Source of the DNA: Escherichia coli
GTDB taxonomy: Bacteria; Pseudomonadota; Gammaproteobacteria; Enterobacterales; Enterobacteriaceae
Length of the DNA stretch: 64,000 nt
Strand: one strand, 5' to 3'
Assembly (NCBI RefSeq): GCF_003334405.1
Contig: NZ_QOWM01000004.1
Both the position numbers and the translations under genes were made by a program. Positions within the stretch are counted from its first letter, which is position 1. Each line of letters begins with the position of its first letter. Below the pieces are notes generated by a model. That model was given only the letters and a program-made list of their open reading frames with translations, was not told where the DNA came from and did no database searches. This document shows positions 43,667 through 43,972 of the stretch, in pieces.

Positions 43667-43972
43667 TTAGCGTGTAGTGGACGTGGTGGTTGAGGTGTTA
43701 TGAGAACCGCCATCGCCACTGTCATTTGCTGCAACAACTGCCAACGTCGCCACACCAACAGCCGTTGCCACACCGACAACTGTCGCCGTGCCGACAGCGC
43801 CAGCAGCCACGCCACCAGTGGTAGTAGCAGTCGTGGTTGCGCCGGTAGTGGTCGTTGTGGTGCCAGTAGTACCCGTCGTTGCCTCGGTCCCGTTTGTTGC
43901 TTCAGGGGCAGCAAACGCAGCTGGCGTCGTCAACATGAAGGCCATAAGGATTGCAGAAAGCTTGTGTTTCAT
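43667..43972 (-). CDS. gfcA: Threonine-rich secreted protein GfcA
   Basis: ORF 43667..43990 trimmed to MKHKLSAILMAFMLTTPAAFA (101 aa); extreme Thr/Gly/Ala/Val low complexity. Confidence 0.88.
   Translation of the reverse strand: MKHKLSAILMAFMLTTPAAFAAPEATNGTEATTGTTGTTTTTTGATTTATTTGGVAAGAVGTATVVGVATAVGVATLAVVAANDSGDGGSHNTSTTTSTTR

Follow-up and report, generated by a model that had tools for sequence, protein, structure and literature searches.

gfcA and the group 4 capsule operon

The window analyzed here is a stretch of 64,000 nucleotides from Escherichia coli (contig NZ_QOWM01000004.1), and the gene under study is a short ORF on its minus strand (Table 1). This ORF is gfcA, previously called ymcD, which opens the group 4 (O-antigen) capsule operon gfcABCDE-etp-etk. 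The 906 nt around it share 100% DNA identity with E. coli strain 300709 (NZ_CP025903), in which the corresponding CDS is gfcA, WP_001295358.1, with the RefSeq product name "threonine-rich inner membrane protein GfcA". The gene does not differ from that of GfcA/YmcD of E. coli (WP_001295358.1), having the same sequence and occupying the same place as operon gene 1, downstream of cspH. A previous reading made from the sequence alone (hereafter, the sequence-only reading) had located a 101-aa ORF at this site, without giving its strand, and had named the product GfcA; both the position and the name are correct. The genes gfcB-gfcC-gfcD-gfcE-etp-etk follow on the same strand and cspH lies on the other side, the window ORFs matching the RefSeq annotation. 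The IS1 element present in the region upstream of gfcA in K-12 strains is absent from the window, indicating that the promoter region of the operon is uninterrupted here.

The capsule system containing GfcA occurs in EPEC, EHEC, ETEC, and Shigella sonnei, and GfcA is among its last uncharacterised parts. In EPEC E2348/69, an in-frame deletion of gfcA abolished the capsule and increased O-antigen laddering, and was complemented by plasmid-borne gfcA alone; the gfcA transcript was also approximately 70-fold above those of four other surface-structure genes (Thomassin et al. 2013, PMC3853201). The protein has been described as "inner membrane or secreted", and it has been proposed that GfcA is modified with O-antigen and exported via GfcD (Larson 2021, PMC8592465). 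The N-terminal barrel of GfcD was matched by fold recognition to the amyloid exporter FapF, and polypeptide export was suggested (PMC9603273). Because GfcA was still called "entirely uncharacterized" by Fruet 2024 (PMC11494523), the previous remark that its molecular role is poorly defined is fair. The gene itself, its Thr content of 30%, which published work had noted, and the idea of glycosylation are all already in print, and the sequence-only reading adds nothing to that record. The value added by the present analysis is a comparative picture that is both negative and directional: the Thr tract is no length switch and is the part of GfcA under the least constraint, and the parts to look to are the hydrophobic patch and the polyThr tail.

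The 101-aa start was favoured over an in-frame upstream ATG at 43990 because a Shine-Dalgarno sequence lies just before the ATG at 43972, and the homologs at 77 loci described below likewise begin with MKK or MKH. The product is MKHKLSAILMAFMLTTPAAFA followed, after the predicted signal-peptidase cut, by APEATNGTEATTGTTGTTTTTTGATTTATTTGGVAAGAVGTATVVGVATAVGVATLAVVAANDSGDGGSHNTSTTTSTTR. Because the protein contains no Cys, it is not a lipoprotein.

Table 1. Features at the gfcA locus, with positions counted from the first nucleotide of the window (a slash marks a predicted cleavage site)
Feature	Position	Strand	Description	Basis
gfcA coding sequence	43667..43972	minus	101 codons and stop	ORF list; match to annotated gfcA
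Shine-Dalgarno AAGGA	43979..43983	minus	6 nt upstream of ATG at 43972	sequence read
Signal peptide, residues 1-21	43910..43972	minus	MKHK n-region, hydrophobic core, AFA/A site	read with -3/-1 rule
Thr/Gly/Ala tract, residues 22-53	43814..43909	minus	contains duplication site	alignment of 68 unique homologs; codon changes
Hydrophobic G/A/V/T segment, residues 54-82	43727..43813	minus	marginal transmembrane candidate	Kyte-Doolittle maximum 2.16
Conserved C-terminal tail NDSGDGGSHNTSTTTSTTR	43670..43726	minus	family hallmark GDGxN-T-polyThr-[R/Q]	alignments
Weak repeat, 21 nt x 2.3, 74%	43823..43870	+	within Thr tract; adjoins site of rare +18/+21 nt duplications	TRF
Imperfect tandem repeat, 18 nt x 3, 72-83%	43745..43798	+	within hydrophobic segment; origin of rare GVATAV duplication	repeat finder
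Antisense shadow ORF, 104 aa	43700..44014	+		ORF list; codon analysis
Antisense shadow ORF	43788..44096	+		ORF list
Same-strand alternative-frame ORF	43642..43914	minus		ORF list
Stem-loop in gfcA-gfcB spacer	43606..43629	minus	CCCGGU..ACCGGG with inner stem; no canonical U tract	RNA fold of 106-nt spacer
Rest of operon	36258..43560	minus		ORF list and RefSeq annotation of identical locus
gfcB	42916-43560	minus		ORF list and RefSeq annotation of identical locus
gfcC	42173-42919	minus		ORF list and RefSeq annotation of identical locus
gfcD	40077-42173	minus		ORF list and RefSeq annotation of identical locus
gfcE	about 38892-40052	minus		ORF list and RefSeq annotation of identical locus
etp	about 38458-38916	minus		ORF list and RefSeq annotation of identical locus
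etk	36258-38438	minus		ORF list and RefSeq annotation of identical locus

Composition and length of gfcA

The 101 residues of GfcA include 30 Thr, 20 Ala, 13 Gly, and 9 Val, and these four amino acids account for 71% of the whole protein and 81% of the predicted mature part of 80 aa. gfcA had the highest Thr content among the 102 window ORFs of at least 80 aa, whether it was counted as the 107-aa ORF from the upstream ATG (28%) or as the annotated 101 aa (30%). In the 40 window ORFs of at least 200 aa, Thr content averaged 5.5% and did not exceed 8.7%; against this background, the binomial tail for gfcA was 9e-15. The sequence entropy of its mature part was 2.74 bits, compared with a minimum of 3.31 bits for any 80-aa window elsewhere in the long ORFs. 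The sequence-only reading, which had described a signal peptide followed by a product dominated by T, G, A, and V, is thus supported by these values. Its description of the product as low-complexity holds only in part, since the protein is rich in T/G/A/V but not uniform: residues 54-82 are hydrophobic and are followed by the polar tail NDSGDGGSHNTSTTTSTTR.

At the nucleotide level, the runs of ACC, GGT, and GCA codons that had been claimed were not found. The Thr codons are mixed (ACG 10, ACC 9, ACT 7, and ACA 4), and an identical codon never occurs more than twice in a row. A search for the simple-sequence repeats of contingency loci detected no homopolymer or short-unit tandem repeat in gfcA, only the weak imperfect repeats of 18 and 21 nt. 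The antisense shadow ORFs noted previously do exist, both lying on the plus strand, and a further ORF occupies an alternative frame of the same strand as gfcA (Table 1). They are a by-product of composition, because 86 of the 101 gfcA codons begin with a purine and the corresponding antisense codons therefore end in a pyrimidine and are never stops.

We examined gfcA across 5,426 complete E. coli genomes, 3,608 of which carried gfcA DNA. Length was read in two evenly spaced samples taken down the whole ranking of matches, each with approximately 58 full-length matches, and all of these had the query length except one per sample. Based on this census, gfcA is 306 nt long in more than 99% of the 3,608 carrier genomes. 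The sequence-only reading had suggested a length-variable locus and had proposed comparing gfcA length across E. coli genomes, with invariant tract length as the outcome that would speak against it; the comparison returned a near-invariant length.

The few exceptions were three independent in-frame tandem duplications, each flanked by short direct repeats. The first adds 18 nt (TTGTTT) to the Thr tract of O169:H41 strains, with the 7-nt direct repeat CAACGAC at its flanks, and was found in 5 genomes. The second adds 21 nt to the same tract in strain RMDEC465 (1 genome), and the inserted copies of both map to about 43862-43879 on the plus strand. The third adds 18 nt (GVATAV) to the hydrophobic segment, inside the 18-nt imperfect repeat, in strain ET358 and three others (4 genomes). 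These allele counts were obtained by searching with each variant as the query, and together they amount to approximately 10 genomes, or about 0.3% of the carriers, with an upper bound near 1% estimated from the low-identity bands.

The gene also appears to be lost through IS insertion or deletion, as exemplified by an IS5 in NZ_LR536431, at least as commonly as it changes length; gfcD was found in 3,715 genomes, about 107 more than gfcA. We therefore give practically no credence to the reading in which the repeats make gfcA a contingency-type locus whose length tunes the capsule between strains. The three duplications show that in-frame change in both the Thr tract and the hydrophobic segment does arise, but their rarity among roughly 3,600 genomes, the single variant per sample of about 58 hits, the mixed Thr codons with their lack of homocodon or short-unit tracts, and the commoner loss of the gene all argue against it. 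When GfcA was used as the query of a word-indexed protein search, all the matches were aberrant variants (read-throughs, alternative-frame frameshifts, and chimeras); because the canonical 101- and 107-aa forms are absent from that collection, it was unfit for a length census.

Relatives of GfcA at homologous loci

To compare GfcA with its relatives, we gathered 80 loci from different species through the conserved neighbour GfcB/YjbF. Because tblastn with GfcA against these loci reached only the Escherichia homologs, the family was defined by position and architecture. A small ORF of 71-115 aa was present upstream on the same strand, 60-290 nt from gfcB/yjbF, at 77 of the 80 loci, and the other three had no upstream DNA. 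The order A-B-C-D was invariant in the loci examined; a wza-like gfcE came next in only 10 of the 80, the rest being of the yjbEFGH type. The A gene thus accompanies B-C-D in the presence as well as in the absence of a downstream wza homolog, suggesting that GfcA belongs with the B/C/D module.

The small ORFs at the 77 loci share a layout of four parts. They begin with an MKK Sec signal peptide ending in AxA/AP, a cleavage site that aligns between the GfcA signal peptide and those of the homologs. This is followed by a variable low-complexity spacer with a G-x-A-A-G motif, by a hydrophobic patch of G/A/V/I/L, and by a C-terminal tail that reads (G)GDG(S/A)NTGTTTTTTTSTT and closes with R or Q. 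In the alignment of 68 unique homologs, the Thr tract of Escherichia is an insertion at one site of the spacer, where other genera have 0 to about 35 residues of differing composition, and in most relatives it is replaced by Ala/Gly/Ser.

Codon changes were counted within the genus. In the comparison with E. albertii, all 4 changes in the signal peptide are synonymous (0 nonsynonymous), and those in the core and tail comprise 16 synonymous and 3 nonsynonymous ones; the tail is near-identical in E. coli and E. albertii, its single change being the terminal R to H. The Thr tract, compared with that of Escherichia sp. L006, has indels as well as codon changes, 8 of which are nonsynonymous and 4 synonymous. 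The codon comparisons confirm that gfcA truly encodes a protein, that purifying selection acts on it, and that constraint is uneven along its length. Judged from the alignments, its Thr tract is an Escherichia-specific filling of a variable spacer that changes fastest between species and is essentially fixed in length within E. coli. The tract is the least conserved part of GfcA and looks dispensable. The alignments likewise identify the C-terminal polyThr tail, rather than the N-terminal Thr tract, as the hallmark and the most conserved element of the family. The suggestion in the sequence-only reading that the tract is a flexible spacer fits this comparison well, both in the insertions of 0 to about 35 residues at its site and in its excess of nonsynonymous over synonymous changes.

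The closest named counterpart is YjbE (PF11106, "Exopolysaccharide production protein YjbE"), encoded by the first gene of yjbEFGH. Like gfcA, yjbE lies upstream of a YjbF/GfcB lipoprotein gene, and like GfcA its product has a signal peptide, a spacer with G-x-A-A-G, and a hydrophobic patch, followed by the C-terminus GDGSNTG-polyThr. In contrast to GfcA, the spacer of YjbE is Ser/Ala-rich and does not have the 26-residue Thr insertion, and its patch comprises only about 8 residues. The yjbEFGH operon also differs from the gfc operon in having no wza/wzb/wzc genes.

The Pfam YjbE family (PF11106) matched 14 of 22 positional homologs and did not match the window GfcA even at E <= 10. We compared order against composition with an HMM built from mature YjbE-type sequences. 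The intermediate gfc-type proteins scored 8-20 bits, a level reached by none of 300 composition-matched shuffles. The window GfcA had a z of approximately 3 relative to shuffles of itself, and its score was reached by 2 of the 300. The alignment of this HMM to GfcA was colinear, with GGVAAG placed on GEAAG, patch on patch, and SGDGGSHNTSTTTSTT on GGDGSNTGTTTTT. In these controls, the similarity in residue order between GfcA and YjbE exceeds what composition would be expected to produce. An hhalign comparison of gfc-type and yjb-type profiles gave 98% probability; because it covers the signal peptide only, it was rejected as evidence of homology in the mature part. No significant match was obtained in Pfam, NCBIfam, or PDB sequence searches with GfcA. 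In particular, there was no match to the Gly-zipper and Rick_17kDa_Anti families of Pfam, and the sole NCBIfam hit, WGxxGxxG_fam (E = 0.04), scored 14.5 bits and so fell short of the cutoff of 35.

We also looked up nine distant homologs of YjbH/GfcD with 36-42% identity, seven of which were assessable. One locus (L096) contains a canonical A-like ORF ending in GGDA-T15-N. At another (L092), the B and C genes are missing, and a small ORF ending in LTTTTTTTSTLTTTITK immediately precedes the barrel gene. The YjbH homologs at L096 and L092 are of only 38% identity, and the GfcA layout is still found adjacent to both. A third locus (L091) has a looser A-like variant. Because an A-like gene was absent at 4 of the 7 assessable BCD or D loci, the A gene is not universally needed by the BCD module.

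The comparison also bears on whether gfcA might act in cis. The combination of a Thr-rich ORF with a conserved stem-loop downstream of it, in the A-B spacer, recalls thrL, and one could imagine that gfcA is a leader whose translation attenuates gfcBCDE according to the level of charged tRNA-Thr. A hairpin does occur at the corresponding position in nearly all 77 homologous loci. However, it lies approximately 40 nt past the stop codon, no alternative pairing with the ORF was seen, and there is no canonical terminator: a scan with a strict U-tract rule was negative for the gfcA-gfcB spacer in the window as well as for yjbE-yjbF of K-12. The fold z-score of the whole gfcA-gfcB spacer was only -1.6. 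The body of the relatives is rich in Ala/Gly/Ser rather than Thr, purifying selection acts on the signal peptide and tail, and the gfcA deletion was complemented in trans (PMC3853201). On the strength of the trans-complementation and of the selection on the protein, we reject an attenuator role of this kind and consider it very improbable. A search of the region against Rfam gave as its sole match a sub-threshold similarity to the cspA thermoregulator at the cspH leader.

Topology and possible role of GfcA

The hydrophobic segment of GfcA comprises 29 residues. Averaged over 19 residues, its Kyte-Doolittle hydropathy peaks at 2.16, which exceeds the usual threshold of 1.6. With an additive Hessa-type scale, the segment of GfcA has a dG of approximately +1 kcal/mol, a marginal value for a membrane span, compared with -0.3 to +0.4 in the gfc-type relatives and +4.5 to +5.6 in the YjbE type. 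No K or R flanks the segment in GfcA; NDSGDGG follows it, and the sole basic residue of the tail is the terminal Arg. When GfcA was considered as a single-pass inner-membrane protein under the positive-inside rule, a positively charged flank was thus not found.

These values bear on the possibility that GfcA is bitopic in the inner membrane. Once the signal peptide is cleaved, the Thr tract would lie in the periplasm and the polyThr tail in the cytoplasm, joined by a stop-transfer helix of residues ~60-82 that has small-xxx-small packing motifs, and GfcA might couple to Etk/Wzx/Wzy in that membrane. The hydropathy maximum and the still more hydrophobic segments of the gfc-type relatives agree with such an arrangement, as do the RefSeq product name and the description "inner membrane or secreted" (Larson 2021, PMC8592465). 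On the other hand, the segment is followed by Asn-Asp and Asp rather than by K/R, contrary to the positive-inside rule, and the YjbE-type relatives keep the tail with only ~8 hydrophobic residues. Furthermore, the A gene tracks the outer-membrane and periplasmic B-C-D rather than Wzc, and AlphaFold predicts no helix. Taking these points together, we regard a bitopic GfcA as the less likely reading, if still quite plausible for the gfc-type proteins, whose segments are the most hydrophobic.

Structure prediction was performed with AlphaFold2 on two fusions, GfcD-linker-GfcA and GfcB-linker-GfcC-linker-GfcA. In both, the partner proteins fold well, with pLDDT above 85-90, whereas the GfcA part has pLDDT of 22-35 and no secondary structure; a helix in the hydrophobic segment was predicted in neither model. 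Based on these models, mature GfcA is probably disordered. In neither linker fusion did GfcA dock to its partners (GfcD in the one, GfcB and GfcC in the other), which is a weak negative, given 12-24 paired sequences and a reading from pLDDT and secondary structure. The idea that GfcA complements a strand of the GfcD barrel, or binds inside the LolA-like GfcB, thus gained nothing from the fusions, a result that is uninformative rather than a disproof.

On balance, we lean moderately toward an explanation in which GfcA is a capsule-required, trans-acting protein with a four-part architecture that acts as a disordered envelope partner of GfcB/C/D, with the Thr tract as a spacer. Cleavage of the signal peptide would release an intrinsically disordered envelope polypeptide of ~80 aa, in which the Thr tract may act as a flexible spacer. 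The partner of this polypeptide would be the outer-membrane GfcB/C/D module and not the Wza/Wzb/Wzc-like GfcE/Etp/Etk; synteny alone points to a possible physical link between GfcA and B/C/D. The C-terminal tail would most likely act on the periplasmic side, because it is the most conserved part and the YjbE-type patch (~8 residues, +4.5 to +5.6) is too short to span a membrane, because no basic residues follow the patch in GfcA, and because a conserved tail is unlikely to lie in different compartments in gfc-type and YjbE-type proteins. The hydrophobic segment of GfcA would then more likely be a patch at an interface with a partner or the membrane than a classical stop-transfer anchor. Several observations count against this explanation: RefSeq/UniProt-style names call GfcA an inner membrane protein, and the 29-residue segment, with its maximum of 2.16, could span the membrane. 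The lack of docking in the AlphaFold fusions, the lack of a Pfam YjbE match for the window GfcA, the restriction of the profile match to the signal peptide, and the missing A-like gene at 4 of 7 distant loci weigh on the same side.

A further question is whether the Thr residues carry sugars. Disordered secreted regions rich in Ser and Thr are typical O-glycosylation sites. Modification of GfcA with O-antigen has been proposed (PMC8592465), and the sequence-only reading likewise raised O-glycosylation of the Thr tract. GfcA would then be a glycan carrier with O-antigen polymer on the Thr residues of the tract or tail; the glycopeptide would be exported via GfcD and would anchor the group 4 capsule at the surface. 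The resemblance of the GfcD barrel to FapF, for which polypeptide export was suggested (PMC9603273), is consistent with this proposal, as are the shift of O-antigen towards LPS ladders upon deletion of gfcA (PMC3853201) and the conservation of the polyThr tail beside YjbH-type barrels in distant taxa. Several points argue against it. K-12 makes no O-antigen and yet has retained yjbE, the N-terminal Thr tract is Ala/Gly/Ser in most relatives, AlphaFold showed no docking into GfcD, and the literature searched holds no experimental evidence of GfcA modification. In addition, we know of no PglL/PilO-type O-oligosaccharyltransferase in E. coli K-12 or EPEC. We therefore consider a glycan-carrying GfcA improbable.

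Two better-known kinds of secreted protein offer analogies. FapC/FapB, exported via FapF, and CsgA, exported via CsgG, are, as GfcA is predicted to be, small Sec-exported, low-complexity, unfolded polypeptides encoded in an operon with an outer-membrane barrel, and in our own reading the G/A/V-rich core of GfcA resembles amyloid-prone segments. Unlike the curlin and Fap substrates, GfcA has no imperfect Q/N-rich repeats, no match to the curlin or Fap families of Pfam, and no AlphaFold docking into GfcD. The PEP-CTERM/exosortase signals, reportedly described by Haft et al. in 2006, mark secreted proteins of low complexity that are rich in Ser/Thr, have a hydrophobic segment near the C-terminus, and are genetically tied to exopolysaccharide production. 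GfcA shares these traits, by analogy only; it differs in that a Pro-Glu-Pro motif is missing and the segment is not followed by a basic cluster, its tail being acidic and polyThr. E. coli, to our knowledge, has no exosortase.

If GfcA is a disordered partner of the B/C/D module, the tail could be a module for recognition by, or attachment to, double-barrel outer-membrane proteins of the YjbH/GfcD type. In that case GfcD would receive GfcA as a disordered peptide serving as carrier or anchor, perhaps with O-antigen polymer attached, and GfcA would so give the group 4 capsule its surface anchor. This is a speculative proposal to which we attach a low probability. A direct link between A and D is nevertheless suggested by L092, where the tail adjoins a YjbH homolog even without gfcB and gfcC.

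A stem-loop between the A and B genes

Nearly all of the 77 gfcB/yjbF loci with a small upstream A ORF have a stem-loop in the spacer that separates this A gene (gfcA or yjbE) from gfcB/yjbF. In yjb-type loci it takes the near-invariant form ATAACCACAC-N4-GTGTGGTTATTTT, whereas gfc-type loci carry a distinct hairpin, ACCCGG...CCGGGT. The A-B stem-loop was not called as a terminator by a strict rule, and the fold z-score of the whole gfcA-gfcB spacer was only -1.6. The recurrence of a hairpin at this position suggests attenuation or a stabilizing 3' end that would yield more A product than B-C-D product (GfcB, GfcC and GfcD or their yjb counterparts). 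Such an excess of A would resemble that of pilin-type major subunits.

Features in the window and in distant homologous loci
Feature	Position	Strand	Basis or remark
Stem-loop, gfcA-gfcB spacer	43606-43629	minus	RNA fold and spacer comparison (L006-L085)
Alternative frame over gfcA, 90 aa	43642..43914	minus	ORF open across most of the gene
cspH leader region	44377-44700	minus	Rfam search
Wza-like + GfcC_C fusion gene, before YjbH	L097:481-3291; L098:477-3332		

Loss and apparent diversity of gfcA

Inactivation seems to strike the 5' end of the gfc operon repeatedly, because IS1 lies within a 906-nt region around gfcA in K-12 strains (H2-H5), IS5 replaces most of gfcA in one genome, NZ_LR536431 (L090), and gfcD-bearing complete E. 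coli genomes outnumber gfcA-bearing ones by about 107. The window does not contain that IS1 in the region upstream of gfcA (about 43973-44272). Neither gfcD nor gfcA gave a megablast match in 1,711 of 5,426 complete E. coli genomes (about one third), and the whole operon is therefore missing or highly divergent in these.

Many database "variants" of GfcA of 107-110 aa (P0008-P0028) are frameshifts out of the gfcA frame into an alternative frame on the same strand, which stays open because of codon composition. They probably stem from misassembly of low-coverage data, and such entries exaggerate the apparent diversity of GfcA. The canonical sequence was absent from a collection of 15 billion proteins.

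Partner proteins and gene neighborhood

Many GfcD/YjbH homologs are 900-1400 aa long (P0090, P0092, P0095 and many more), with the YjbH part beginning at residue 250-350, and in two distant loci the gene preceding YjbH encodes a fused Wza-like (Poly_export/SLBB) and GfcC_C protein of ~940 aa. Gene fusion therefore rearranges the module in other phyla. A GfcB-GfcC heterodimer has reportedly been published, and an AlphaFold model of GfcB, GfcC and GfcA joined by linkers (m5b8bf1b896a6; pTM 0.71), with high pLDDT in both the GfcB and GfcC domains, appears compatible with it.

The cspH leader gave a match to the Rfam cspA thermoregulator that, at 21 bits, fell short of the gathering score of 78. 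The adjacency of cspH and gfcA is resembled in two unrelated metagenomic loci (L092:30-698 and L094:215-445), where cold-shock-domain genes lie just upstream of YjbF/YjbH clusters; this shared arrangement may be coincidental.
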